Source: Clostridia bacterium
GTDB lineage: Bacteria; Bacillota; Clostridia; UBA1212; UBA1255
DNA length: 64,000 nucleotides
Assembly: GCA_046952735.1 (NCBI GenBank)
Contig: JBKUJR010000010.1
Span: 3,099-67,098, forward strand
Direction of reading: 5' to 3'
In this document: positions 22,176 to 36,358 of the stretch, one piece after another
Layout: the number at the start of each line of letters is the position of its first letter
How positions within the stretch are numbered: position 1 is the first letter of the stretch
The notes under the pieces: generated by a model
The model's database searches: none
The model's input: the letters and a program-made list of their open reading frames with translations, nothing else
What the model was told of the DNA's origin: nothing
Translations under genes and position numbers: made by a program

Positions 22176-23022
22176 GAGATATGGTAATGTTAGCAATTCA
22201 AAGCCTTAGACCGGAGCCGTAGGCGGAGGGAGAAGGCTTTGAATTGCGGCGCGCTTATACCGACAGCTTTTCCCTCAGCAATTGAATCGGACTTTTTCCG
22301 CCGAGTGTACGCATGGTCTTATTATTACTCCACCGCAAATGTCCCTTGAGCTTTTCATTCAGTTCATCCACGTTTCTGAATTTCTCCCAGTCGTAGAAAT
22401 AACGCTGGTCATTCCTATGGCTGCGCTCGACCTTTCCGTTGTGCCAAGGTGTTCTCGGCGGAATCAGAATATGCGCTATACCGCATTTCTCAAGCAGCTT
22501 ATCCATCGGGCTTTTTTCTGTGTCGCTTATGAACTTGCAGGTAAACTCCGTTCCGTTATCGGTCTGTATTGTCTTGATTTTAAACGGAAATACTTTATTC
22601 TCCGGTGTATGCTCCTCAAACCCATATACAAAGCGAATCCGCGTACATTCATCTATGGCTGTCCACTGGTATAAACGCTTTCCGTCTCTGCGCAATTCTC
22701 CATGCAAACAGTCATATGGACTTCCTTTACGTCAATTTGAACCTTTTCGCCGGGAAAAAGCAGCTCCGGATAACGTTTCAGATTAGTGAGCGGCTGCTTT
22801 TTCTTTTTCGTTTCTGCTCCCAATCCGACCCTTTTGGCCGCATACACCATTCCGCTGAAACTGCGGCTATATCCGGCTTGTAAAACTTTTTCCTTTTCTT
22901 AATGAAAGTTTTTCTACCGCTTGCCGTTTCCTCGCTTCCTGTGTTATAATATTTATGGGAAGTTTCTCCTTGATATGGTTTTTGGTCTTATAATGATTCC
23001 ATTATACCATATCTTTCGAGAG
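22176..23022. mobile_element. internally deleted IS element remnant (rve/DDE transposase) with imperfect terminal inverted repeats
   Basis: A GC-rich block inserted in AT-rich DNA. Terminal repeats AAAGAGATATGGTAATG (about 22182) and the reverse-complement of CATTATACCATATCTTTC (about 23002) share the core AGATATGGTA. The body is only about 0.85 kb, so it is deleted. Confidence 0.45.
22255..22883 (-). pseudogene. DDE-type (rve integrase core) transposase, frameshifted
   Basis: QTDNGTEF...WHNGKVERSHR DDE core at 22255-22707. An upstream piece (EKVQIDVKEVH) lies in another frame at 22653-22850. Confidence 0.6.
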
Positions 23023-23093
23023 TCTTCCTCTCTTTTTGGGTCATATCATTTTAGTACATACAGTTTTTCGGCAAGTATTTTTTAACATGCATT

Positions 23094-23123
23094 GACAATT
23101 ATGGAAGATTTGTGATATCATGC
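23094..23123 (+). promoter_or_regulatory. putative promoter of the peptide-modification cluster (TTGACA, 18 nt spacer, TG-a-TATCAT extended -10)
   Basis: TTGACA at 23094 and an extended -10 TGATATCAT. A leader of about 270 nt follows. Confidence 0.4.
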
Positions 23124-23397
23124 ATTTAAGCTAAATACTAGCTTTCTGTGCTGAATTAATCGCAGGGAGAAACCTGATTATGACATACCGAACCGACAGC
23201 AAGAGTCTTGCTTATTCCTCTGGATTCATACATCGATTTGACGATGGATTACCGCCGTTATGTTTTTCTGTGTTGCAAAATATTTTTGCAAAAAGCGCAA
23301 AGCGTCCGCTAGGAGATGGCTTTGCGCTTTTGCTTTTGAACATAAGAATTTTATATATTGGTTTATACGTGCTTCGGAGTTTGTAGATACCCTGTAA

Positions 23398-24261
23398 TTG
23401 GGCGATTTCGCAGTATTAGAAATGAGGCTTAAAATGTTTTATTCATTTTATAAAAATGCCGAATATAGTATGGAAGATGATTTGCGTTATCTAAAGCTAT
23501 ATTCCGATTATGATCATGCAGAAAACGGGCAAACACAAGATGTTAATTTCACATTTGATACCAAATCGCTAGAATTGATACAAATTAGAGACACTTGGAA
23601 TATTGATGACGTTATGGGGTTAGGTACGGAGCTTCAGAGAATTGTCAAATTGAAAAAATGGGCTTTCGAGTTATTATGTTTTAGTGGGAAAAAACTTGAA
23701 AGTAGGCATTACGAAACGCTTAATTGTTTTGAAACTATTCAATCAGCAATAAGTGAAGGTTATTCATTGAATTGTAGATATATCTCCCTTATTTTTACAC
23801 AAATATTATTAGCTGCAGGATTCAAAGCGAGATGGGTATCTTGTTTGCCTATGGAGTTAAATTACTGTGAGTGTCATTGTGTTTCCGAAGTATTTATTGA
23901 GGAATATAGAAAATGGATCGTTGTAGATGTTGCATTAAATGTTTTGTATTTTGATAAGAAAGGAAGTCTTCTTAATTTATATGATATAAGGCAGCATGTA
24001 CTAAAAAATGAGCCGTTTAGAATACAATCAACAACAAAAGAACATTTTCAATATGTTTGGGAATATTGGATAAGGCATGTTTTTAGATTTAAATTCCTTT
24101 TAAATAACAAATACAATATGTTGGCATCAAGCAATAAAACATTTGTATTTTTAAACCCAAAAGGGTTTGTTGTAAACGATAAAGAAATAATTCATTCAGA
24201 GAACGACACTACGAAATTTATACATTTTTATAATGATAAATTATTTTGGAAGGGGTCTTAG
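23398..24261 (+). CDS. transglutaminase-like superfamily enzyme (papain-like Cys-His-Asp), putative peptidase
   Basis: NCRYISLIFTQILLAAGFKARWVS matches the Transglut_core Cys motif (G.C..FA..F..L.R..GIPAR.V). CHCVSEVFIEEYRKWIVVDVA supplies the His and Asp. The true start is probably the ATG at 23422 or 23434; the track starts at a TTG at 23398. Confidence 0.7.
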   Translation: MGDFAVLEMRLKMFYSFYKNAEYSMEDDLRYLKLYSDYDHAENGQTQDVNFTFDTKSLELIQIRDTWNIDDVMGLGTELQRIVKLKKWAFELLCFSGKKLESRHYETLNCFETIQSAISEGYSLNCRYISLIFTQILLAAGFKARWVSCLPMELNYCECHCVSEVFIEEYRKWIVVDVALNVLYFDKKGSLLNLYDIRQHVLKNEPFRIQSTTKEHFQYVWEYWIRHVFRFKFLLNNKYNMLASSNKTFVFLNPKGFVVNDKEIIHSENDTTKFIHFYNDKLFWKGS

Positions 24262-24265
24262 TTAT

Positions 24266-25573
24266 ATGTTTAAACAATCTAAATTTAATTACACTTGTAA
24301 AAATGATGATGGCGAATTGCTTATATATAATACATATATTGGTGCCAAAAGCATGTGTAAAATCAGAGATTTATTATTACAAGATACGTTCTTAAATAAC
24401 ATTTCAATTGAAAATGAATCAGTTCTTTCAAGCTTGTTATCAAGAGGTGTTTTGGTAAATGACGATTTAGACGAGAATTTGAAGCTAAAAAATCTTATTC
24501 ACAAAATACTATCTCCTTCTGATTTAAAACTTGTTATTAGTCTTACTGAGCAATGTAATTTTTTATGTAAGTATTGTTATGAATCGCATAACAAAATAAA
24601 GCTCACTTCAGATGTAAAATACAATATAGTGAATTATATAAGGCATAACATACACAAATTTACAGATTTAAATATAACTTGGTTCGGCGGCGAGCCACTA
24701 CTTGCACTTGATGATATAATAGAAATGTCGCAAGAATTTATAAAAATATGTACTTTTAACAGAAGAAAATATACAGCTTCAATGACTACTAATGGCTATT
24801 TATTGGATGTAGAAATATTTAAAGAACTCTTGCGTAACAGAGTCTGGGCATATCAGATAACCCTTGACGGCACAAAAGAGCTTCATGACAAGCAACGTCC
24901 AACTGTAGGAGGCAAACCTACATTTGATACTATTGTAAAAAATCTTGAAGAAATTAAAAAGTTGAAAAATCGAGATTTTCACATTGTTATCCGTTCAAAT
25001 CTTACGAGCGATATATTTAATCATTTAGACGAATATATGGAATTTATCTCTTATCTTTGCGGCGATGATAACCGTTTCTCTTTATCAGTTTGTTATGCCA
25101 GCGAGTGGTCTGATAATATCGATAAAGATTTCAAGGATACGTTTATTAATAACCGTAACAACATTTTTCCATTATATGAAAAATTTCTAAAATGCAAAAG
25201 TCAAATTAATTTTGCTTTTTTATTAAATCCTGAAGATGGAGCATGTGAACTGGGACGTGATAATAGGTTTTTTGTTCGTCCCAACGGAGAATTACATAAG
25301 TGTTCTGTGGGATTTGAGAATAAAAAAAATATCATTGGCGTATTTTCCGGCAATCAAATTACGCTTAGTGATAACTATTATGAAAAAATAATAGATCCAA
25401 GTATGTGCAGCAATTTTGAAAGTTGTTTCTTTGCTCCTATATGCAAAGGCGAAGTCTGCCCTGCGGTGCGAAGTGAAAAAAATACTAGTTGCCCCGACTC
25501 GAAAAATCACCTAAGTTACATACTTCGTTTATTAGACAAATCGAATCAGATTGTCCGTATTGATGAAAAATAA
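24266..25573 (+). CDS. radical SAM/SPASM-domain peptide maturase
   Basis: CNFLCKYC is the CxxxCxxC radical SAM cluster motif. A C-terminal SPASM-like Cys cluster follows (CELGRD...HKCSVGF...MCSNFESCFFAPICKGEVC). RBS GGAAGGGG precedes the ATG at 24266. Confidence 0.85.
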   Translation: MFKQSKFNYTCKNDDGELLIYNTYIGAKSMCKIRDLLLQDTFLNNISIENESVLSSLLSRGVLVNDDLDENLKLKNLIHKILSPSDLKLVISLTEQCNFLCKYCYESHNKIKLTSDVKYNIVNYIRHNIHKFTDLNITWFGGEPLLALDDIIEMSQEFIKICTFNRRKYTASMTTNGYLLDVEIFKELLRNRVWAYQITLDGTKELHDKQRPTVGGKPTFDTIVKNLEEIKKLKNRDFHIVIRSNLTSDIFNHLDEYMEFISYLCGDDNRFSLSVCYASEWSDNIDKDFKDTFINNRNNIFPLYEKFLKCKSQINFAFLLNPEDGACELGRDNRFFVRPNGELHKCSVGFENKKNIIGVFSGNQITLSDNYYEKIIDPSMCSNFESCFFAPICKGEVCPAVRSEKNTSCPDSKNHLSYILRLLDKSNQIVRIDEK

Positions 25574-25586
25574 GGAGTTAAAAATT

Positions 25587-25841
25587 ATGGATAAATCATT
25601 GATAAGAAATAATATTATTCAAGCCTTAGCAAAAGTTTTTATCTTTGTTGACAGCGCCGAAAATGAAGATGTTGATTTGGAAACATATATTGATGATTCT
25701 ATACAATTTATGTCTTTCATAGTTGAATTAGAGCAAATTTTCAATATCGAGTTTCCACCTGAATTGTTATTGTTTGATAATTTCAAGACCATCAATAACA
25801 TATCCTTAATTATAGAGGAGATGTCAGCATTAGATGCCTAG
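25587..25841 (+). CDS. acyl/peptidyl carrier protein-like (PP-binding) small protein
   Basis: An 84-aa protein with an ACP helix-2 signature around a Ser (YIDDSIQFMSFIVELEQIFNIEF). Strong RBS AAGGAG 9 nt before the ATG at 25587. Confidence 0.6.
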   Translation: MDKSLIRNNIIQALAKVFIFVDSAENEDVDLETYIDDSIQFMSFIVELEQIFNIEFPPELLLFDNFKTINNISLIIEEMSALDA

Positions 25842-25903
25842 TAATATTAGCCACAGGGCACTTTGTGTTAATATGATTATTCTCGAGAAAGGAGGATGCT
25901 GTT

Positions 25904-26035
25904 ATGACAAAAAAAGTCAAACTAAAAAAGCCGCAAGTCAAGAAAGACGATAAAATCTTGACTCTGTATAGCACGGAAACGAATGGCGTTGATTCATGCT
26001 GCCCAAGCGGTCAGAGTGGAAACTGCACCTGCTGA
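25904..26035 (+). CDS. candidate RiPP precursor peptide, 43 aa, Cys-rich C-terminus (not in the ORF track)
   Basis: RBS GGAGGA sits 7 nt before the ATG. Translation: MTKKVKLKKPQVKKDDKILTLYSTETNGVDSCCPSGQSGNCTC. It has a Lys-rich leader-like N-terminus and four Cys in the last 12 residues. It lies directly downstream of the rSAM/SPASM and carrier genes and is followed by a terminator. Confidence 0.55.
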   Translation: MTKKVKLKKPQVKKDDKILTLYSTETNGVDSCCPSGQSGNCTC

Positions 26036-26062
26036 ATTACTTAAATAAGTAAAATCCAAAAC

Positions 26063-26100
26063 CGCCTATATAGTAAAGTGCCTTACTATATAGGGCTTTT
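26063..26100 (+). terminator. intrinsic terminator/attenuator after the precursor peptide
   Basis: A roughly 15-bp stem GCCTATATAGTAAAG/CTTACTATATAGGGC followed by TTTT. Placement after the peptide is typical for high peptide-to-enzyme expression ratios. Confidence 0.5.
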
Positions 26101-26119
26101 GGTAGAAAGTAAGAAAGAA

Positions 26120-27901
26120 ATGAAAAAGTTAACCATATTTTCCGAATTACTACGATATGCATGGAAAAATCACAAATCACTTGTATTTGTGATTGTGTTT
26201 GAAAATATATTCTCCGCTACGCTTCCTCTAATAAACGTAGTTGGTATCGGCGTTATTATAGACGCTTTAACAAATGGACTCAGTAATAAAGCAGTGATGA
26301 ATATAATTTTAATGTTTACTGCATTGAATTTAGGCGTTTCATTGATAAAATATGTTTTAACATATTTGCATAATATAGCGGCACGAAAAGCGTCGGATAA
26401 AATTCAATATGATTATATGCGAGATGGGATTATCGTAAATTATCACTGGGCGCAGGACGGTTCTGTTCTTGATATGAAAAAGAAGTCAATGGGAGCTAAT
26501 CCCGTATTCGTATTTTCGCATATTGGAAACTTTATTGATTATATAGTAAAATTTGCCGGTATCCTATTTATTTTTTCAATGCTCAGTCCGCTGTTTATAA
26601 TTATGATTTCTGCTACATCGGCAATTTCAATCGTAATAACATTTAAAATACGGAAACTTGATTTTGAATTTGAAAATGAACGCACAGAAGATTCTCGCAA
26701 ACTCGATTATCTCTATAATCTTATGACACGGTATGAATACGCAAAAGAGGTCAGAATAAATAATTTAAAGCCTCTGATTATACACAAAAATGCTGGTATT
26801 ATCGCTACTCAATTAGTGAAACTTAAAAAATTTATGCGGTTAAAACTGCGTTTTGATAGTCTATCCGCTGTTGTTGCGGTAGTACAATCAGTTATTATGT
26901 ATTCGTATTTTTCTTATCGTGTTTATATCGGCAGCCTGACTATAGCTGATTACTCTGTTCTGCTGGGAGCTGTGGCGTTATTGACGTCTATTTTGATTGG
27001 TTTTTTTGATAATATTGCCGTTATAGACAGAATGACGGCTCGTATGGATATATTCCTTAAGTATAAAAAATGGGTACGTGAGAACAGCGATATTTTCGCT
27101 ACAAATGAAATACCTCAAAGCGTAATTGATGAAAAGCATAATCAAATAAATTTTGAAAATGTAAGCTTTATTTATCCAAATACCGATATTTCAATACTTC
27201 GTAATTTGAACTTTGTTTTGAAAGATGGGCAGAAAGTCGGAATTGTCGGATTGAACGGTTCCGGCAAGACAACGCTTGTTAAACTTCTTCTTCGCCTTTA
27301 TACGCCAACACAAGGGAAAATACTTCTTAACGGTATTGATATTAACACAATTCCCCTTGAACAATATTTAAAGCGGATTGGCGTGGTTTTGCAGGATTTC
27401 AACATTTTCGCATATTCAATTAAAGAAAATGTCGTTTTCGATAACAATGTTAGCGAAGATGTACTCAACAACGCTATTGAAAAAAGCGGCTTTGCGGGGA
27501 AAGTGGCAAGTTTAAAGGACGGCGTTGATACAATTCTATATAAAGAGCTTGATGAAAACGGGATAGAACTTTCCGGAGGTGAAGGGCAAAAATTAGCGCT
27601 CGCACGCGCACTCTGTAAAGATACCGGAATTTTAATCCTTGACGAACCGACTTCCACTCTTGATCCTATTGCCGAATACGAAATGTTTTCAAGTTTACAT
27701 GACATTTCAGAGGGAAAGACTACAATATTCATTTCCCATAGGCTTTCATCGACTAAATTCTGTGACCGTATTTTTGTGATTCAAGACGGAGTTATTGCTG
27801 AAGATGGTTCTCATAGCGAGTTGATGGCACAAGGCGGGTTATACGCCGATATGTTTGAATCTCAGGCAAAATTTTATAGAGAAAATGGTGTGCTATTATG
27901 A
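26120..27901 (+). CDS. ABC exporter, fused permease-ATPase (no C39 peptidase domain)
   Basis: An N-terminal six-TM domain followed by a nucleotide-binding domain with Walker A GLNGSGKTTL, signature LSGGEGQKLALARAL and Walker B ILILDEPTS. Confidence 0.85.
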   Translation: MKKLTIFSELLRYAWKNHKSLVFVIVFENIFSATLPLINVVGIGVIIDALTNGLSNKAVMNIILMFTALNLGVSLIKYVLTYLHNIAARKASDKIQYDYMRDGIIVNYHWAQDGSVLDMKKKSMGANPVFVFSHIGNFIDYIVKFAGILFIFSMLSPLFIIMISATSAISIVITFKIRKLDFEFENERTEDSRKLDYLYNLMTRYEYAKEVRINNLKPLIIHKNAGIIATQLVKLKKFMRLKLRFDSLSAVVAVVQSVIMYSYFSYRVYIGSLTIADYSVLLGAVALLTSILIGFFDNIAVIDRMTARMDIFLKYKKWVRENSDIFATNEIPQSVIDEKHNQINFENVSFIYPNTDISILRNLNFVLKDGQKVGIVGLNGSGKTTLVKLLLRLYTPTQGKILLNGIDINTIPLEQYLKRIGVVLQDFNIFAYSIKENVVFDNNVSEDVLNNAIEKSGFAGKVASLKDGVDTILYKELDENGIELSGGEGQKLALARALCKDTGILILDEPTSTLDPIAEYEMFSSLHDISEGKTTIFISHRLSSTKFCDRIFVIQDGVIAEDGSHSELMAQGGLYADMFESQAKFYRENGVLL

Positions 27902-29679
27902 AATTTATAAAGAACAAAATAATCGCTCCATTCGAGATCATCTCACTTATTTTCAAACATTCTCCCAGATATTTTGTGTTTTTCGTACCGCAAGTGATTT
28001 GCTCTTCTCTTTTGCCTTTGTTATATGTTTATGCGCCAAAATTAATTATTGAGGCCTTAACCGAAGGCAAGGATTATGATGGTATATTTAAAATCATAAT
28101 TCTTTTCTGCGGAACGGCGTTAATTTTAAATCTTATTATAGGTTATTTGAATAAGAAAATCAGTTACTGCGTGGAAAATTTCAGCAGAAAACTGTCCTCT
28201 GAAATAGGTCGAATCGTTATGAATCTCAGCCTTTCAGAAATTGAAAACACAACAGAGCGCGACAATATTCGCCTTGCGGGCAATGCTGCGGGAACAATAG
28301 AATTGTGTGAAGTCATTAGAAAATTAATACAAAATATTATAACGCTCATCGGATTCGTTGGGATTGTTTCTGAACTGGATATTAAATTTTTTGTAGTAGT
28401 TGCTATTTTGTTGATAGTGAAAATTATATTCACTTATATTAATTATAGAGCAAATCTCAAACTTCGTATACTGACTGCGCAAAACGACAGAACAGGCAAT
28501 TATCTTACCAATCTTTGTTATTTCAATCAAGGTGCTGCTAAGGAGATACGGGTAAACAGCATTCAATTATGGTTTCTTCAAAAAGTAAAAAAATTCAGAC
28601 AGAGGATGGTAAGATTACAGTATAAAGAGTTCCGCCGAAACTTATTTTTTGATAGTATTAACGCCATTTTGTTTGCGGCTTCTTCATTTTACATTCTTTG
28701 GAGTTTATCAACATATTACCTTGACAACGCTATTTCAATCGCTGATTTTACCCTTTATTTCACAACCATCACAGCATTGAGCGCTGCATTGGGAACAATT
28801 ACAGACCTTATAGCGCAATACAATAAACAGCTTAAAAATGCAGCTGATTTTGGGAAACTTAAAACATTATCAGAACAAAACGAAAAACATCCGTCATCAG
28901 ATATTGCACCTTTTGAAGAGTCGTCAAATATAGAAATTTGTTTTTCTGATGTATGGTTTGCTTATCCGGGCAGTAAAGATTTTGTACTTAGGGGAATTGA
29001 TATAAAAATTACTAACCGCGAAAAGCTGGTTATTGTCGGATATAACGGTGCGGGGAAAAGTACGTTTATAAAACTTCTCTGCAAATTTTATCGCCCTACA
29101 AGGGGAGCAATAACCTTAAATGGTATAGATATTTGGGAGATACCAAACGAACAATATAACAGAATAATTGGCGCGGTTTTTCAAGATTTTGTTACGTTCG
29201 CATTTACAATATCCGAAAATATATCAATGAGCGAAAATAATGACGATTTGTCCGGAGTTTTATTAAAAGCAGGACTTTTAGATTTTGTAATCAATTTGCC
29301 TGACGGCGAACAAACATACATTTCAAAAAAGTTTTCATCTGAGGGCATAGAGCTTTCAGGTGGACAAGGGCAAAAAATAGCTCTTGCCCGCGCGATGTAC
29401 AAAAATGCTCCTGTATTAATTCTCGACGAACCGACAGCAAGTCTTGATTTAAAGGCTGAGAGTGAATTGTATGAAAATTTCATGAAAACTGCTTTTGATA
29501 AAACCGCATTATTTATCTCTCACCGTTTGGCGGCTTCCCAGATAGCAGATTGTATCGCGGTTTTATCGGATGGGAAAATAGCTGAATGCGGAACACATAA
29601 AGAGCTTATAGAAAAAAACGGATTGTATGCCGAAATGTTTGAAAAACAGAGTAAACCATATATCCAAGATAAAGTATAA
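27898..29679 (+). CDS. ABC exporter, fused permease-ATPase (second half of a probable heterodimer)
   Basis: ATGA start/stop overlap with the upstream ABC gene. Walker A GYNGAGKSTF, signature LSGGQGQKIALARAM, Walker B LILDEPTASLD. Confidence 0.85.
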   Translation: MKFIKNKIIAPFEIISLIFKHSPRYFVFFVPQVICSSLLPLLYVYAPKLIIEALTEGKDYDGIFKIIILFCGTALILNLIIGYLNKKISYCVENFSRKLSSEIGRIVMNLSLSEIENTTERDNIRLAGNAAGTIELCEVIRKLIQNIITLIGFVGIVSELDIKFFVVVAILLIVKIIFTYINYRANLKLRILTAQNDRTGNYLTNLCYFNQGAAKEIRVNSIQLWFLQKVKKFRQRMVRLQYKEFRRNLFFDSINAILFAASSFYILWSLSTYYLDNAISIADFTLYFTTITALSAALGTITDLIAQYNKQLKNAADFGKLKTLSEQNEKHPSSDIAPFEESSNIEICFSDVWFAYPGSKDFVLRGIDIKITNREKLVIVGYNGAGKSTFIKLLCKFYRPTRGAITLNGIDIWEIPNEQYNRIIGAVFQDFVTFAFTISENISMSENNDDLSGVLLKAGLLDFVINLPDGEQTYISKKFSSEGIELSGGQGQKIALARAMYKNAPVLILDEPTASLDLKAESELYENFMKTAFDKTALFISHRLAASQIADCIAVLSDGKIAECGTHKELIEKNGLYAEMFEKQSKPYIQDKV

Positions 29680-29711
29680 TATATTTTTAATTGAAAACGA
29701 GGGGTTGGATT

Positions 29712-31490
29712 ATGAAGAAAATAAAAATAGCGATACTTGACAGCGGAGTAAGGAAAGATCACCCTGCTTTTTCAACTAAAACGATAAACGGTTTTTCTCT
29801 TCGTTTAATAGATGAATCTGTAGAACAATATGCAGAATTTATTGATAACGTAGGACACGGAACGGCAATCTTTTACCTTATAGATAAATTTATTGATAAT
29901 GTAGAAATCACAAATATAAAGATATATGATACTAATTCTGAATTAACACAATATAATTTTGAAATGCTGTTAGATTTTATTTGTAAAAATTATGATTTCG
30001 ATATAATCAACATAAGTATGGGATTTTTAAGCTGCGGCAGTGTCGCTAACTTACAAAAAATATGCGATGATTTTTACGCAAGAAGAACATTAATTATATC
30101 CGCTTTTGATAACAACGGCGCAGTTTCTTTTCCTGCCGCACTAAATAATGTAATAGGAGTTGACGGACAAGAAAATATTGATTCGTTAAATGGTTATATA
30201 CATGTGGAAAACAGTATTGTAAATATAATCGGAAAGCTCAAAAACATGAGAGTAGCCTGGTTGGCGCCTGATTATATAATTGTAAAAGGCAACAGTTTTC
30301 TTTGTGCAAATATTACTGCCAATGTGGCAAAATGTTTACAAGAGCAAGGGGTTGTGGATTGGCAAAAAATATGCACTGACAAATATTTGTTTCCAAAAAC
30401 TTTAGACAATCATATTCCGTTTAATATACGCAAAGCAGCGGTATTCCCTTTTAATAAAGAATTACATGCGATTGCGAGATTTGAGGAATTATTGAATTTT
30501 GATATAATAGATTATTATTCAATAAGAATAACGGGATACATTGGTAAAAAAATATCTGATGTTTTACCTGATTGCAGCAACGATAAGGTTATTAAGAATA
30601 TTGATGATATTGAATGGAATGAGTTTGATACTTTGATACTGGGTCATACCGGTGAATTATCGAGGTTAACTAAAAGTGATTATAGAACCACTCTTTTAAA
30701 TAATGCCATTGAAAAGGGTAAAAACATATATTGCTTTGATAATCCTATGCCAATTATAAACAATCCCAAATATACGGATGTATATTTTCCTAAAATTGAT
30801 AGTACAAACATTAAAAAAAGATTTGGCAAATTATATAAAACAGATAAACCGATTATAGCTGTAATTGGAACTAATTCTCGTCAAGGTAAATTTTCGCTTC
30901 AGTTGTGTCTTAGAAAAAAATTAATAGAGTTCGGATATAGTGTAGGACAAATAGGAACTGAACCTTCTGCACTGTTATTCGGATTTGATGAAATATTTCA
31001 TTGCGGATATAACGGACAAGTTGATTTGGATATCTCTCAAACATATATAGCTGTTAATGATATGATTTGGAATATAACTCAAAAAGATGTTGACCTGATA
31101 ATTGCCGGAACTCAGAGTGGATTTCTTCCCTATAATGATTACAACGCCATGATGTTTCCGACATATCATCAAATATTCTTTTCTGCTTTACAGACTGATG
31201 CAATTATTGTATGCATAAATCCATTTGACGATATACAGTTTGTGAACAGAACTATAAAAGCGGCAGAAGGTCTTTCGGGCGGAAAGGTGATTGGAATCGT
31301 ATGCTTTCCTATTGATGTTTGTGACAGTTGGCAAGGTAACTTTGGAATGAAAGCTCGCATAAGCGAAGAAAGAGAAAATGAAATCAAGCATAAATATTGT
31401 TCGCATGAAGATATAAAAGTATATATGCTTGATAAATCTGACGAACTTGATGAATTATTATCCAAATGTATTGAATATTTCCAGCAATGA
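29712..31490 (+). CDS. subtilisin-like (S8) serine protease domain fused to a roughly 370-aa C-terminal P-loop-like domain of unknown function
   Basis: N-terminal Asp (IAILDSGV), His (DNVGHGTAI) and Ser (GNSFLCANITANVA, compare GTSMAAPHVAG) in subtilase order. The C-terminal region contains PIIAVIGTNSRQGKFSLQLCL. RBS GAGGGG precedes the ATG at 29712. Confidence 0.6.
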   Translation: MKKIKIAILDSGVRKDHPAFSTKTINGFSLRLIDESVEQYAEFIDNVGHGTAIFYLIDKFIDNVEITNIKIYDTNSELTQYNFEMLLDFICKNYDFDIINISMGFLSCGSVANLQKICDDFYARRTLIISAFDNNGAVSFPAALNNVIGVDGQENIDSLNGYIHVENSIVNIIGKLKNMRVAWLAPDYIIVKGNSFLCANITANVAKCLQEQGVVDWQKICTDKYLFPKTLDNHIPFNIRKAAVFPFNKELHAIARFEELLNFDIIDYYSIRITGYIGKKISDVLPDCSNDKVIKNIDDIEWNEFDTLILGHTGELSRLTKSDYRTTLLNNAIEKGKNIYCFDNPMPIINNPKYTDVYFPKIDSTNIKKRFGKLYKTDKPIIAVIGTNSRQGKFSLQLCLRKKLIEFGYSVGQIGTEPSALLFGFDEIFHCGYNGQVDLDISQTYIAVNDMIWNITQKDVDLIIAGTQSGFLPYNDYNAMMFPTYHQIFFSALQTDAIIVCINPFDDIQFVNRTIKAAEGLSGGKVIGIVCFPIDVCDSWQGNFGMKARISEERENEIKHKYCSHEDIKVYMLDKSDELDELLSKCIEYFQQ

Positions 31491-32428
31491 TGGAGAGATT
31501 TATGTATATAGATATTGCGTCAACAAAATATGATACATACGATTGTTACCAGAACAATATAATTGCTATTTTAGGTAATTATTTTAAAATTGATTATCGA
31601 CCGTTTTTTTGGAGCGGTTTTGATTTTCGTTTTTCAATTGATCAAAAGAAAAATTATATAAATATAACAGGATATAATGCATACCAAGAACAGATACTTT
31701 TAGAGCAATGCGGAGTGAAAATTAATTGTATAAACAAGACTTGTATTCAAAGATTCAAACAAATCATCTTAAAAGAGTTAAACGATTCTAGACCTATTGG
31801 ATTACGCCTAAACGGTTCTGATTTGTCATGGAATAATGATAATAAAAATATAGATTATCATTACTTGCTTATTATTGGTATTGATGTTTCTGCTTCTCTC
31901 ATATACTGTTGTGATAGTTTTCTTTCCGATAAAATTCAAACAATTGATATTTCTTATTTATATGAAAAAGTAGAATATATATTGATTTACTCTATATCAG
32001 AGAAAGGTCAAATATCATTTAATATGTCGAGAGCTAATTTTTTAAGATGCTTGGATTATAACAGTAAAAATAAGAATTCTGATTTGTATCATTTTATAAA
32101 TAATACTTCAATATTATTTGAGAATCTTAAAGGTACTAATCCAAATAATAATTCGGTAATATTTCAATTATCCCGTGTTTGTTGGAGCAGATATAATTTC
32201 ATGAAATCATTGGAATATTTTCACGATATATACGGCAACGAAATACTCGATAATATAAAAAAGTGTTTTAATGTTATAATCGACACATGGACAAAATTGA
32301 AAAATATATTTATAAGGGCTACTCTTATTAATAATGCGCAGCAACTTAATAAATATAGTGAATATTTTATTAAGCTAATAATTGAAACTGAATCTGTGAT
32401 ACAAAATTATTTAGAAGCGCAAAACTAA
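31487..32428 (+). CDS. hypothetical protein, possibly BtrH_N/peptidase-C39-like (Cys...His) transferase or peptidase
   Basis: A 313-aa protein with an N-terminal Cys (DTYDCYQNN) and a downstream His in a beta-strand context (DYHYLLIIGIDVS), as in the papain-like BtrH/C39 fold. Its start overlaps the upstream stop. This is a family assignment from memory only. Confidence 0.35.
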   Translation: MMERFMYIDIASTKYDTYDCYQNNIIAILGNYFKIDYRPFFWSGFDFRFSIDQKKNYINITGYNAYQEQILLEQCGVKINCINKTCIQRFKQIILKELNDSRPIGLRLNGSDLSWNNDNKNIDYHYLLIIGIDVSASLIYCCDSFLSDKIQTIDISYLYEKVEYILIYSISEKGQISFNMSRANFLRCLDYNSKNKNSDLYHFINNTSILFENLKGTNPNNNSVIFQLSRVCWSRYNFMKSLEYFHDIYGNEILDNIKKCFNVIIDTWTKLKNIFIRATLINNAQQLNKYSEYFIKLIIETESVIQNYLEAQN

Positions 32429-32443
32429 AATAGGAGGATTCAA

Positions 32444-32689
32444 ATGGAGGAAAAAGTAATAAATATAATATGTCAAGCAATAACACTGGAAAGTGATATT
32501 TTGATTACAGTTGACACACTACTTTCTGACTTGCCGTTTGATTCTATAAAATTTATTAAAATGGTGGTAGCTTTAGAAAGTGAATTTGATTTTGAATTTG
32601 AGGATGAAAAATTGCTCTTTACACAATTTCAAACGGTGAAGTCGTTAATTGAATATGTTGATTTGAAAGTTAATTCACTGAATAAATAA
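32444..32689 (+). CDS. second acyl/peptidyl carrier protein-like small protein
   Basis: An 81-aa protein with LSDLPFDSIKFIKMVVALESEFDFEF, an ACP-like Ser motif. RBS AGGAGG. Confidence 0.55.
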   Translation: MEEKVINIICQAITLESDILITVDTLLSDLPFDSIKFIKMVVALESEFDFEFEDEKLLFTQFQTVKSLIEYVDLKVNSLNK

Positions 32690-32904
32690 AATGTGTAAAT
32701 GATCAAGCTAAGATTCTGATAAGAGAGTAACCCGTGAAATTACTTTATTTCTGGGCATCGCTAAACTGTGAAAGCATTCCATTTCGGTGTTTTGCTATAA
32801 CTGTACCATTACTGATTTTATTTCTCTACAACAAATAAGACCAATTTTAAGTTTTTGATGGCGTGGCTGCAAAAAAGTTACATAAAAACCTGATTTATTT
32901 TTAG

Positions 32905-33980
32905 ATTTGTCTTGACACGGGGAGACGAGGGTATTACGGGAACATGTCTTGCCAAGCGTGATGAGTTTAACCGTATGATACGTGACAGCAAGGAAGGGAA
33001 GATTGACCGTATCTATGTAAAAAGCGTTTCCCGTTTTGCAAGAAATGCTTTAGATTGCCTTGATAGTATCTGTATTCTGAAAGAGTACGGCGTGTCGGTG
33101 TTCTTTGAAAATGACGCTATTGATACGCAGACACTCAATTCCGAACTTGTGCTGTATATTAAAAGTGCATTTGCCCAGGCTGAATCAATGACAGGTCCAA
33201 AAGGGTGAAGACGAGCAACAGGATGCGTGCGGAAAGCGGTCACTATACCTTTACAGCACCGCCATTCGGTTACAGAATGGAAAACAACACGCTGATTCCC
33301 GTGCAGGAAGAGGCGGAGATTGTTATTCGTATCTATAAGGAATACCTTTGCGGTATGGGCGTGAGCAAGATTGTATCGGGATTGAACTCTGATCCGGATG
33401 TTCCGGGCAAGCCGTGGAGGAAAGAGGGCGTTCGGTATATCCTTGCTAATGAGAAGTACATCGGAGACAGTCTCTTTCAAAAAAGCTTCACGCCAAATGA
33501 ACTGCCTTTCAGAAATCGTGTAAATCGTGGTGAGGTGGAAAAGTACGATATCTCGGGTACCCATGAGGTAATTATGGATAGGAAACTTCATTCTGCCGTA
33601 CAGGAGATGCTGCGTCGTAATGTCGAAAAGCAGGCGAAAAAAGCAAGACCTCGTAAATTTAACTTCAGCAACAAAATATTCTGCGCATCCTGTGGATGGA
33701 CATATAAGCAATGAACGGGATTTTGTCGCAGGAAGCGCTGAATTTCCAGCCCGCAAAAAAAGCACTCTTTGATCTCCTGAATGCGCAGTTTGACTGCTGT
33801 GAGCCGGATCGCTCCGGCGTAGTAGAGTATATAAATGACTGTAAATCAATCGACGCAGTCGATGTGTCGCTTTTCAAGGTAATTCTTTCGGAAATTCAAA
33901 TCGATGCAAACGGAACGGTCGCTCTGCGCTTTGCAAATAACGCCGTCATTTCGTTGGAAGGGAGCGAGGAGCATGAATAA
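32905..33980 (+). pseudogene. large serine recombinase, N-terminally truncated and frameshifted (three frames)
   Basis: DEGITGTCLAKRDEFNRMIRD...VKSVSRFARN is the resolvase domain, lacking the catalytic-Ser N-terminus. The recombinase domain at 33205-33714 ends in a CxxC zinc-ribbon start (CASCGWTYKQ). A C-terminal tail lies in a third frame at 33711-33980. Confidence 0.6.
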
Positions 33981-34771
33981 CAGCAATCAGACAACGCAAA
34001 AGATCGTGACGAAAATCGCCGCCAATCCTGCACTGTCCAAAAAGTTCGATCCGAACCGTCCCTCAAAATAGCGGCATACTGCCGTGTATCCACTGATGAT
34101 GAGGATCAGTTTAACAGCTACAGAACGCAGAAAGCATACTACACCGATTACATCAAAAAGAACCCCAAATGGCGTTTCACCGGAATTTATGCTGACGAGG
34201 GTATTACAGGAACTTTGGTAAAAAAACGCGACGATTTTCTTCGCATGATAGCGGATTGCGAAAAAGGAAAGATCGACCTTATTCTGATTAAATCGGTTTC
34301 CCGATACGCAAGAAACATCGTGGATTGCATTTCGTATATACGCAAGCTCAAGGCACTGGGGATCGGAATCTACTTCGAGGAGCAGAATATCAGCTTACTG
34401 AGGACAGCGAGGTATATATCGGTATCTACGGCGTTATGGCACAGTCGGAAAGTGAGAATATTAGTGCTAATGTTAAGTGGGGAATCAATAAGCGGATGCA
34501 GAACGGTACATATGCCTGCCGCTTTAATTTGCTTGGATACCGCAGAGATAAGGAAACTAAGGAAATTAGGATTATACCCGAGGAAGCAGAGATTGTAAAA
34601 AAGATATTCCGTATGTATCTGCAGGGTTCGAGTTTGGATCAAATCAAGGCGTATTTGGAAGAGAACGGCGTTAGGACAGTGAGGGGAAATCTAAAATGGG
34701 ATAAGCACGGCATCCGATCTATGCTGACAAATGAGAAGTATGCGGGGGATATATATCCACTTTTTTTATAA
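33975..34771 (+). pseudogene. second large serine recombinase, frameshifted and 3'-truncated
   Basis: ATG at 33975 with an RBS. A 1-nt frameshift precedes KIAAYCRVSTDDEDQ (catalytic Ser motif). GIYADEGITGTLVKKRDDFLRMIAD and the recombinase domain follow with another frameshift near 34380. About 70% nucleotide identity to the upstream copy. Confidence 0.6.
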
Positions 34772-35164: not shown

Positions 35165-36358
35165 TCAACGGAATCCGATTTTATGCGTCTCCGGCCACGG
35201 GCAGCTTTTCCATTGCCCGCCGTCCTCCTCCAGATCTCCTGTTAATAGATCCGTTGCCGCATTCGTAATGTATCCGAGATAACTTTCTGCATCGGGAGCA
35301 CCGTTTAAAATTTTCCAGAAAATACCGCCAAATTGATAGGAACGTGCGAATTCCCGCCAGCTGCGCATTCCGAGACATACTTTCTGCGACAGGTCCCACA
35401 GAATGCCGATTGCTTCGCCCTCTGTAATCCAGCCGAGATAATATCCCCAGCGTGTCAGCATAGCCGCCCGTCCGATGTCCCAGCCGAGCAGAAAATCAGG
35501 CAAATACCGTTCCTTGTAATATTGCGCAAACCGCCACCCGCGGCTGACGGAGGCGATCTCTTCTTCCTCTATCTCTTCGCCGCATAATTCCTCCGGGGAA
35601 GCCGCTTCGCAATATTGCTGATACCGAAAGACATAGCCCTCCTGCGTCAGATACCGAAGCGTTTCCATAAGTTCTGCGCGCCCGTTGATCCCCCAGCTGC
35701 GGCGTACGAGCGAAACGATTCTCTGTTCCAGAATCGGGATATGCTCTTCCACATCCAGCCCGTCGAGCTCATGTTCATTCACTTTGGAAACGATCCCTGA
35801 AAGCAGGATCCCGAAACGCCCCCATTGCTTGGAATCCTTCGGATAGTAGACAGGCTCCGGCTCCGGCAGCGAATCTATCTGTTCCATACTGTTTTCCAGT
35901 ATATGATAAAGCTTCTGCTCAAATGCCAAATCGAACGATTCTGCATCTTCCTCTAAATCCGTTTCCGCCTGTTCGTTTTCCAACGCAAGCGTTTCCAGAG
36001 CCGCAGACAGGATTCCCATATCTTCGCCAAATAGTTTTTCCATCATGCCGTCTGCGCTCATAGAGGCATATTCGGAGACCTGCTCCGCTACCATATTCTG
36101 GATCTGTGCTTCTGAAGAAGCCATCTGCGCCAATGTTTCCTCGTCAAAAAGCTGACCCAAAATTTCTACCTGCCGCCGGCTGCTTTCGGATGCCTGTTCC
36201 GCCGCCTTCTTGGCATCTTCGTTCTGCTTCTTTTCTAGTTCCGTTTCTTCCGATGCCTGCCGTGCAATTTCTGCGCTTTTCTGTATGGATTTTTCCAAAT
36301 CGGCAGAGGCTCTGTTACTGGCCTCCTGCGCTCTGCGGAAAATTTCGTCGATATCCAT
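35165..36358 (-). CDS. DUF1266-domain protein with an N-terminal coiled-coil/acidic region
   Basis: The C-terminal W-rich segment (WDIGRAAMLTRWGYYLGWITEGEAIGILWDL) resembles DUF1266. Confidence 0.55.
   Translation of the reverse strand: MDIDEIFRRAQEASNRASADLEKSIQKSAEIARQASEETELEKKQNEDAKKAAEQASESSRRQVEILGQLFDEETLAQMASSEAQIQNMVAEQVSEYASMSADGMMEKLFGEDMGILSAALETLALENEQAETDLEEDAESFDLAFEQKLYHILENSMEQIDSLPEPEPVYYPKDSKQWGRFGILLSGIVSKVNEHELDGLDVEEHIPILEQRIVSLVRRSWGINGRAELMETLRYLTQEGYVFRYQQYCEAASPEELCGEEIEEEEIASVSRGWRFAQYYKERYLPDFLLGWDIGRAAMLTRWGYYLGWITEGEAIGILWDLSQKVCLGMRSWREFARSYQFGGIFWKILNGAPDAESYLGYITNAATDLLTGDLEEDGGQWKSCPWPETHKIGFR

Follow-up and report, generated by a model that had tools for sequence, protein, structure and literature searches.

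What does it mean that a protease of the kind that removes leader peptides is made as one polypeptide with a nucleotide-binding-like domain? The question is raised by a 592-amino-acid (aa) protein of a Clostridia bacterium (contig JBKUJR010000010.1 of assembly GCA_046952735.1), encoded in a stretch of 64,000 nucleotides that is referred to here as the window and by whose numbering all positions are given. The protein joins a minimal subtilase of peptidase family S8 to a module related to DUF1611 and TIGR04066, and its gene lies in an operon for a peptide that is made by ribosomes and modified after translation (RiPP), together with genes for a radical S-adenosylmethionine (rSAM) enzyme, an acyl carrier protein (ACP)-like protein, a short precursor, and ATP-binding cassette (ABC) exporters. 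Domain identity and operon context are assigned here with high confidence. What the fusion does is a more tentative matter: it may be a bifunctional cytoplasmic maturase that couples leader removal to an ACP-dependent step in a widespread, unnamed rSAM RiPP cassette. That this step is an N-acyl transfer performed by the C-terminal half is a still more doubtful proposal, and it is weighed below against three others.

The fusion is a conserved gene

The forward-strand open reading frame (ORF) has two candidate starts, TTG at 29691 and ATG at 29712, and ends at 31490. The ATG is regarded as the real start because a GAGGGG ribosome-binding site (RBS) lies 7 nt upstream, all homologues start at this position, and the 592-aa product is identical to an NCBI protein (P0001) from a metagenome-assembled genome (MAG), where it is labelled 'S8 family serine peptidase [Clostridia bacterium]'. 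Conservation was scored throughout on an alignment of 53 full-length homologues with 36-80% identity, and an AlphaFold model of the full-length fusion built on the same alignment has a mean confidence (pLDDT) of 92.5 and a predicted template-modelling score (pTM) of 0.91, the latter of which suggests that the two halves are held in a fixed arrangement in the predicted structure.

The fusion had been thought unusual in the original prediction made for this locus, and in the sense of rare it is not. Among 5.8 billion proteins searched, 820 homologues were found, the best 120 of which are nearly all 585-625 aa long and carry both Pfam domains. An exhaustive HMMER scan with the C-terminal half alone found 1296 clusters at 50% identity (517 at E<=1e-30); in about 128 of the best 150 clusters the protein is 550-630 aa long and the match begins near residue 240, i.e., the two halves are fused. 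A relative of the fusion is encoded by 290 GTDB species (one genome per species), mostly Clostridia (Lachnospiraceae, Oscillospiraceae), with others in Paenibacillus, Tumebacillus, Sutcliffiella, Lutispora, and a few Treponema MAGs. The motif pair GT[SN]SxQGK[FY][TS] and FPFNKE[IMV]H occurs in only 327 stretches within 596 Gb of genomes, and 290 of these 327 encode relatives. The fusion is a conserved gene, neither a chance pattern nor an artefact.

The N-terminal half is a minimal cytoplasmic subtilase

PF00082 (Peptidase_S8) matches residues 2-213 with 31.6 bits against a cut-off of 21.8, and it matches 52 of the 53 homologues. The catalytic triad, which the original prediction had described as complete, is also invariant in the family: D10 (in ILDSG), H49 (GHGT), and S195 (GNSFLCA), together with the oxyanion residue N134, are kept in all 53 homologues, in the order Asp-His-Ser plus oxyanion Asn, and in the sequence contexts (D-S-G, H-G-T, and G-x-S-x-x-A), by which membership of Peptidase S8 is recognised. 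This half has neither a signal peptide nor a prodomain, because the chain begins at the Asp-bearing strand itself (MKKIKIAILDSG), and it is a cytoplasmic protease. Foldseek aligns it to subtilisins (E ~1e-9, probability 1.0), and its structural matches include 4zoq, a lanthipeptide protease, and PagA (4h6w), a cyanobactin protease. When PDB sequences are searched with a profile of the fusion family, the S8 half finds intracellular serine proteases as its best matches.

The best NCBIfam match of the S8 half is NF049966 (QhpE), at 8.6e-24 and 84 bits against an equivalog cut-off of 165. QhpE is a cytoplasmic subtilisin-like leader peptidase of QhpC. It acts once the rSAM enzyme QhpD has installed Cys thioethers, ahead of export through the ABC protein QhpF, and it is a tightly controlled, single-turnover enzyme (PMC7876137). 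Like QhpE, the S8 half is a minimal (~220 aa) cytoplasmic subtilase that lacks a prodomain. Unlike the fusion, QhpE lacks a DUF1611 module, an ACP is missing from the qhp operon, and the substrate is an enzyme subunit rather than a short RiPP precursor. With its score below the cut-off and no qhpABC genes in the window, the S8 half is, as judged from its sequence, QhpE-like and not QhpE.

A second comparison had been drawn with PatA and PatG, cyanobactin RiPP proteases that are fused to further, non-catalytic domains. It holds as an analogy of architecture: these proteins and the lanthipeptide leader peptidases LanP are RiPP leader- or follower-processing subtilases that sometimes carry added domains. 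It goes no further than that, as the domain fused here is DUF1611, a SIMIBI P-loop protein unrelated to the cyanobactin DUF and macrocyclase domains.

The C-terminal half is a DUF1611/DgcN-type module

The C-terminal half (~355 aa, residues ~240-592) has the complete two-domain DUF1611 fold, in which a Rossmann-like N-domain is followed by a P-loop domain. The original prediction had pointed to DUF1611 from a Walker-A-like motif within the peptide PIIAVIGTNSRQGKFSLQLCLRKKLIEFGYSVGQIGTEPS (residues 380-419) and had described the region as a P-loop-like domain. The family assignment proved right, and in the AlphaFold model the loop does sit in the P-loop position, between strand 381-386 and helix 393-406; the region as a whole, however, is not a P-loop domain alone. 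PF07755 (DUF1611_C) matches residues 372-504 with 26.0 bits against a cut-off of 25, which is marginal, and it matches 53/53 homologues (best 2.4e-13). PF17396 (the DUF1611 N-domain), the other family named at the outset, gave no match at E<=5 in 16 C-terminal halves, and the Rossmann-like N-domain is therefore recognised by fold only.

The fold, on the other hand, is clear. Foldseek aligns the C-terminal half over its full length (~340 residues) to 2obn (Ava_3511) and 2g0t (TM0796), two uncharacterised DUF1611 structures, with E ~1e-12 and TM scores of 0.66-0.72 (TMt 0.68-0.72). The next match is 7xrj, entitled 'N-acetyltransferase DgcN' (E 1.4e-9, TM 0.57-0.61, TMt 0.61). Thereafter come the synthetase of cyclic 2,3-diphosphoglycerate (cDPG), dethiobiotin synthetases, CobB, and proteins of the MinD/ParA/signal recognition particle (SRP) type, all aligned over the P-loop sub-domain only. 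The top 50 PDB fold matches consist solely of DUF1611, DgcN, and SIMIBI P-loop proteins. A P-loop fold of the kind that may bind nucleotides is present in the C-terminal half, as are a significant S8 match and the catalytic Ser in the N-terminal one.

Sequence searches reach less far. A phmmer search of PDB sequences with the C-terminal half alone gave nothing meaningful, and the NCBIfam DgcN model did not match this half at E<=10. A profile of 16 C-terminal halves reached 2g0t over the P-loop only (E 0.0023) and gave no sequence-level alignment to 7xrj. The same profile yielded matches to the WalK PAS domain (E ~1e-3, residues 19-102 of the C-terminal half), which are considered spurious, as the fold search gives them no support; weak Pfam matches to ComA, Staphostatin_A, PYNP_C, NOD2_WH, and others were set aside as noise. 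A homology search for canonical DUF1611 proteins with a 61-aa fragment of TM0796 returned zero matches. Among curated families, TIGR04066 ('peptide maturation system protein') comes closest in sequence, with 3.5e-28 and 97-99 bits where the cut-off is 200; it is a more precise relative than DUF1611 and one that the original prediction had missed. Relatives score 56-105 bits against this model, some over its full length, and none reaches 200. Literature searches on DUF1611, on TIGR04066, on peptide maturation systems, and on the combination of SPASM, ACP, and subtilisin yielded no functional study.

About 16 polar residues of this half are invariant across the homologues (K249, E250, H252, D306, H312, S389, Q391, K393, Q397, T416, E417, Q468, D496, N503, D506). 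In the N-domain the invariant positions are F-P-F-N-K-E-x-H (245-252), D306, and G311-H312; in the P-loop domain they are G-T-E-P (415-418), G466-x-Q468, D496, N503, and D506. With so many invariant polar residues, and in both sub-domains, the pattern looks like an enzyme active site. Within the Walker-A-like loop G386, S389, Q391, G392, and K393 are invariant, and the loop is the variant G-x5-G-K-[FY]-[TS] found in dethiobiotin synthetase (DTBS) and DUF1611, with an invariant Lys and the hydroxyl residue shifted by one position. An acid at the end of the Walker-B-like strand is not conserved among the 53 homologues, in which position 465 is variable (T/V/A) and D/E461 stands at the start of the strand. 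As read from the alignment, this pattern differs from that of a textbook nucleoside triphosphatase.

The fusion belongs to a recurrent rSAM RiPP cassette

In the window the fusion is the 7th of nine co-directional genes that abut or overlap, inside an rSAM RiPP operon; the RiPP setting that had been supposed for it is therefore real. How regularly this setting recurs was surveyed by calling ORFs in 85 loci and searching them with hidden Markov models (HMMs) made from the window neighbours; 47 loci with at least 7 kb on each side are counted as fully flanked. The S8 and DUF1611 parts lie on a single ORF in 85/85 loci. An rSAM gene is adjacent in 43 of the 47 fully flanked loci, an ACP-like gene, which the original prediction had overlooked as a near-obligatory partner, in 42/47, and both in 42/47, and ABC exporter genes are found in 79/85. 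The usual gene order is rSAM, ACP, and precursor, and then the fusion, either before or after the ABC genes.

Two loci were considered as natural split forms. One (L088) was rejected, since a run of Ns divides the gene and the split is an assembly artefact, and the other (L087) is a weak case, with a truncated S8 ORF 33 nt upstream of DUF1611. A separate state of S8 and TIGR04066 is documented, in the literature, solely for the canonical TIGR04066 system. In another locus (L084) the fusion is accompanied by an extra stand-alone DUF1611-like ORF among the downstream ABC genes. The cassette also occurs beyond Bacillota, in Treponema MAGs (L059, L064, L078) and in bins labelled Alphaproteobacteria and Bacteroides (L079, L085); horizontal transfer is a possible explanation, as are binning errors for the last two. 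Cultured carriers are Paenibacillus polysaccharolyticus BL9, P. phocaensis, P. tuaregi, Tumebacillus flagellatus GST4, Lutispora thermophila DSM 19022, and Anaerocolumna sp. AGMB13025.

The nearest described system is that of CcpM/CLI_3235, which comprises a TIGR04065 precursor, TIGR04066, the TIGR04068 rSAM enzyme CcpM, the ACP-related TIGR04069, an S8 protease, and an ABC exporter (PMC4573289, PMC10731318). In Roseburia intestinalis L1-82, S8, TIGR04066, and TIGR04069 are separate genes beside the TIGR04068 rSAM gene (PMC4573289), and the same holds for the SacP23 cluster of Paenibacillus polymyxa (PMC10731318). The window cassette has the same five functions (SPASM rSAM, TIGR04066-type DUF1611, ACP-like, subtilase, and ABC export) and also Cys-rich precursors. 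It differs in that S8 and the TIGR04066-like module are joined in one polypeptide, that its family stays below all cut-offs (97-105 bits against 200 for TIGR04066, 94 against 500 for TIGR04068, and 16.6 against 70 for TIGR04069), and that its rSAM enzyme is nearer to TIGR04463, Clo7bot, and CefB. Assignment of the precursor to the CLI_3235/TIGR04065 family was rejected, as there is no TIGR04065 match. The best NCBIfam matches of the window rSAM (TIGR04463, Clo7bot, CefB, and PapB) are all below cut-off; an identification as the TIGR04463 equivalog was also rejected, the cut-off being missed in the window and in 9 further loci. Because no component reaches the curated cut-offs of the CcpM/CLI_3235 system, the cassette is placed, on these sequence scores, as an unnamed sister of that system, which is itself biochemically uncharacterised, rather than as a member of it.

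The carrier protein and the precursor family

Among 70 orthologues of the ACP-like protein, the phosphopantetheine Ser, which in carrier proteins stands in a D-S-[LIM] motif, and a Glu lying 11 residues downstream are each conserved in 100%; the preceding Asp is kept in 90%. Since the attachment Ser is kept in 70/70, the ACP-like protein is very probably a true carrier protein with a predicted modification site.

Downstream of the ACP gene, 68 short precursor ORFs were found in 53 loci, and they form one family. Each consists of a basic leader with MKK..[LV]KKP, then the junction V-x-L-[YF]/x-x-E (the slash marking the putative cleavage point), and a core of 5-52 residues with 1-5 Cys; 31 of the 68 end in Cys, and a Glu is kept at +2 to +5. 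The filter that selected these ORFs demanded an aromatic residue and then a Glu, by which the -1 and +3 positions are biased. The independent signals of the junction are therefore Val at -4 (41/68) and, in part, Leu at -2 (47/68), a position at which the filter allowed eight residues. Tandem genes, two or three with the same leader and different Cys cores, were seen in several loci (L077, L017, L023, L059, L064, L078, L006, L032, L049). The shortest predicted cores, such as GE[TN]GNCxxC (e.g., GETGNCVFC), HSEGNNCRC, and DNEGCNNCWC, have two Cys, one of which is C-terminal (L036, L039, L042, L043, L045, L020, L028). Their size fits signalling peptides more typically than bacteriocins.

How the two halves might act together

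The proposed pathway has three steps. Firstly, the rSAM enzyme would cross-link Cys residues of the leader-bound precursor into thioethers of the ranthipeptide/QhpC type, as its homologues suggest. Secondly, the S8 half, whose domain identity is observed and whose activity is predicted, would cut off the leader (MKK..KP..V-x-L-[YF]) in a QhpE-like manner, most likely behind the aromatic residue, so that V-x-L-Y would fill P4-P1. A large hydrophobic residue at P1 is what subtilases prefer as a rule. Thirdly, the TIGR04066-like/DgcN-like module would work with the co-encoded, phosphopantetheinylated carrier protein: a thioester donor would be held at the P-loop by its phosphate or nucleotide part, and the acyl group would be moved to a peptide amine, most simply the alpha-amine newly freed by the fused protease, so that the product is capped ahead of ABC export.

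The model for the third step is DgcN, the only characterised member of the fold family of the C-terminal half. DgcN, a D-glutamate N-acetyltransferase described by Yu et al. in 2023 (a study cited in PMC12363236), reportedly depends on acetyl-CoA and has the amine group of an acidic amino acid as its target. The C-terminal half has the whole two-domain fold in common with DgcN, 2obn, and 2g0t, and its PF07755 score is above the cut-off. It differs from them in sequence (10-16% identity, no PF17396 match, and GT[SN]SxQGK[FY][TS] in place of GTDxxxGKxTT) and in setting, where peptide maturation and an ACP take the place of D-amino-acid catabolism. A transfer of this general kind has a precedent in lipidated RiPPs (goadvionins with GdvG, lipolanthines, and selidamides), in which Gcn5-related N-acetyltransferase (GNAT) enzymes move the acyl thioester of a carrier protein to a peptide amine. 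Unlike the DgcN-like candidate here, those enzymes have the GNAT fold, and genes for polyketide synthases (PKS) or fatty acid synthases (FAS) load their ACP, whereas the present cassette has no loading genes. That both activities probably act on one intermediate is argued by the fusion itself, which joins the separate S8 and TIGR04066 genes of CcpM/CLI_3235. The fused protease would bring the alpha-amine that it exposes close to the transferase site, and the conserved Glu past the junction may serve as a recognition element.

Several points weigh against this scheme. The likeness of the C-terminal half to DgcN is one of fold only, at the low identity given above, and the structures that are nearer to it, 2obn and 2g0t, are uncharacterised. 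The cleavage site is read from motif conservation with the filter bias described above. In 4-5 of the 47 fully flanked loci the rSAM and/or ACP gene was not detected by HMM, and the minimal cassette has no obvious enzyme for loading the ACP. Finally, the next structural neighbours of the module (dethiobiotin synthetase, cDPG synthetase, and CobB) are ATP-dependent ligases, which would suit a ligase equally well.

Such a ligase is a somewhat less likely alternative. The protease would have the same role, and the C-terminal half would be an ATP-dependent enzyme of the dethiobiotin-synthetase/CobQ type that phosphorylates a carboxylate: that of a small acid, of the conserved Glu near the cleavage site, or of the peptide C-terminus, which is often Cys. 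The group so activated would be handed to the ACP at its phosphopantetheine thiol, or else to a nucleophile of the peptide. The module would then load the carrier instead of unloading it, or would make an amide or thioester ring. Consistent with this are the DTBS-type spacing of GTxSxQGK[FY][TS], with its invariant Lys and conserved hydroxyl residue, the identity of the nearest folds past DUF1611/DgcN (the MinD/ParA ATPases included), and the invariant E417, D496, and D506, which together with D/E461 could bind Mg2+. The frequent C-terminal Cys (31/68) and the Glu at +2 to +5 would offer suitable carboxylates. The minimal cassette also holds no other candidate for loading the ACP with its invariant Ser, and a ligase would account for the missing enzyme. 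The likeness to dethiobiotin synthetase and CobB/CobQ, however, comprises the G-x5-GK spacing and the core fold of the P-loop sub-domain (3of5, 2qmo, 3mle, 4pfs); it covers that sub-domain only (TMq ~0.35), those enzymes have no Rossmann-like N-domain, and the Walker-B acid that would bind Mg is not kept in the fusion family, position 465 at the end of the Walker-B-like strand being variable and not acidic. After GK the hydroxyl residue stands one position off, which is a general trait of DUF1611, and DgcN reportedly uses acetyl-CoA and not ATP. N-acyl transfer is slightly preferred over ligation, since the match to DgcN extends over both domains of the fold instead of the P-loop core alone, and since the family lacks a conserved Walker-B acid.

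More broadly, the module may represent an unrecognised class of RiPP-tailoring enzyme with carrier-protein chemistry, either acyl or aminoacyl transfer from a dedicated holo-ACP to the amine that the fused protease has set free, or ATP-dependent loading of the peptide or an acid onto the ACP, coupled to leader removal; this idea is offered with considerable reserve. In another view the C-terminal half is not catalytic at all, and is instead a docking, recognition, or checkpoint domain for the leader, the rSAM enzyme, the ACP, or a nucleotide, which gates the protease so that a peptide is cut and passed on to the exporter once it is fully modified; the original prediction had a similar idea in its coupling of cleavage to recognition. 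RiPP proteases are often fused to non-catalytic domains, as in PatA/PatG, the SIMIBI neighbours MinD, ParA, and Get3 are commonly nucleotide-dependent switches, and the high pTM suggests a rigid two-part body. The tight, single-turnover control of QhpE would agree with gating as well (PMC7876137). Nevertheless, the invariant polar and charged residues, about 16 in number, exceed what is usual on a docking surface and are typical of an active site, and docking would leave a carrier protein with an invariant phosphopantetheine Ser unexplained; for these two reasons a gating role is less likely, and it is judged improbable here. The window rSAM also has an N-terminal extension of ~100 aa already, the place in which RiPP recognition elements (RREs) normally sit. 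In the sister system, moreover, TIGR04066 is free-standing (PMC4573289, PMC10731318).

The weakest proposal, that the TIGR04066-like half provides producer immunity or couples energy to the transporter, goes back to a guess of 'immunity' made from annotation alone for the TIGR04066-type 23sacE of the SacP23 cluster (PMC10731318) and to the adjacency of the ABC exporter genes; it is very improbable, as the module is a soluble, enzyme-like two-domain fold with no membrane segments, resembles no known immunity protein, forms one chain with a cytoplasmic protease, and lies beside ABC proteins that have ATPase domains of their own.

The operon and its surroundings in the window

The features of the fusion and of its operon are collected in Table 1.

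Table 1. Positions of the fusion gene, its domains, and the other features of the operon (window numbering).
Feature	Position	Strand	Evidence and remarks
Fusion gene, S8 leader-type protease plus TIGR04066-like/DUF1611 module	29712..31490	+	592 aa; ORF, RBS, Pfam, NCBIfam, homologues
Minimal subtilase domain, residues 1-225	29712..30386	+	PF00082, NF049966 below cut-off, invariant triad, Foldseek
Catalytic codons	D10 29739-29741; H49 29856-29858; N134 30111-30113; S195 30294-30296	+	Alignment of 53 homologues
Rossmann-like N-domain of the DUF1611 fold, residues ~241-360	30432..30791	+	AlphaFold models, alignment to 2obn/2g0t/7xrj, conservation
P-loop (SIMIBI/dethiobiotin-synthetase-like) domain, residues ~371-592	30822..31487	+	PF07755, Foldseek, conservation
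Walker-A-like loop GTNSRQGKFS, residues 386-395	30867..30896	+	Consensus GT[SN]SxQGK[FY][TS]; aligns with GTDCVVGKRTT of TM0796/2g0t
Promoter-like site	23092-23121		Promoter scan
Transglutaminase-core accessory protein (papain-like Cys protease/transamidase fold), first operon gene	23398..24261	+	PF01841; 19/85 loci, usually just upstream of rSAM
Radical-SAM/SPASM peptide maturase	24233..25573	+	PF04055; true start probably near 24266
ACP-like carrier protein	25587..25841	+	PF00550, 28.3 bits against 20.8; D-S motif kept; listed ORF starts at TTG 25551
Precursor peptide, 43 aa, MTKKVKLKKPQVKKDDKILTLY/STETNGVDSCCPSGQSGNCTC (slash at putative junction)	25904..26035	+	Position and leader motif common to 53 loci
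Terminator-like hairpin, 12-bp stem and T-run	26065..26094	+	30 nt past precursor stop; consensus scan only
Pair of ABC exporter genes, both with permease and ATPase	26078-27901, 27898-29679	+	Pfam, NCBIfam
313-aa protein, weak BtrH_N match (E 0.015)	31487..32428	+	1/85 loci, window lineage only
Second ACP, more canonical	32444..32689	+	PF00550, 4.4e-10; ACP2-like in 16/85 loci

The precursor has no match in NCBIfam. There is an overlap between the hairpin that follows it and the GTG listed as the start of the first ABC gene, which suggests that this gene starts further downstream (MKKLTIF...). Leaky terminators of such a hairpin type often follow RiPP precursor genes. At the other end of the operon, the 313-aa protein and the second ACP may add one more tailoring step that depends on a carrier. 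BtrH, which has a papain-like fold, is an ACP-dependent acyltransferase.

The RiPP cassette (23000-32700) has a GC content of 30-35%, compared with ~48-52% for the window, and it is flanked by fragments of mobile elements: an rve transposase (22255-22707, minus strand) and a Phage_integrase (17228-17947, minus strand) on one side, and serine-recombinase pieces downstream (Resolvase 32912-33208; Recombinase 33205-33714 and 34325-34771). Given the low GC and these broken transposase, integrase, and recombinase genes, the cassette is probably a horizontally acquired island, and it looks like the cargo of a decayed integrative element. Two unrelated neighbours are a DUF1266 protein whose N-terminal region is long and acidic (35165-36358, minus strand) and a protein with a YhcG-type PDDEXK nuclease domain (17666-18076, plus strand).

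Significance for RiPP maturation

TIGR04066 and its ACP-like partner have long been listed as 'peptide maturation system' proteins with no role assigned (NCBIfam; PMC4573289, 2015). The fusion ties the TIGR04066-type module functionally to a leader protease, and the fold link to DgcN provides a first chemistry-level hypothesis for the module, namely thioester-dependent N-acyl transfer or ATP-dependent loading. The invariant phosphopantetheine Ser in turn points to a true carrier protein in a RiPP pathway that has no genes for PKS, non-ribosomal peptide synthetase (NRPS), or FAS, and the cultured carriers make the carrier-protein hypothesis directly testable.

If the proposed maturase is real, the leader would be removed and the product capped in a single, physically coupled event, and the products would be N-capped thioether micro-peptides, some with cores of 9-10 residues (GETGNCVFC), for which, given their size and leaders, a signalling role is as plausible as an antibiotic one. 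RiPP biosynthesis would gain a new class of enzyme and a new kind of modification logic, and the maturase would define several hundred clusters of gut and soil Firmicutes that current NCBIfam models leave unnamed.

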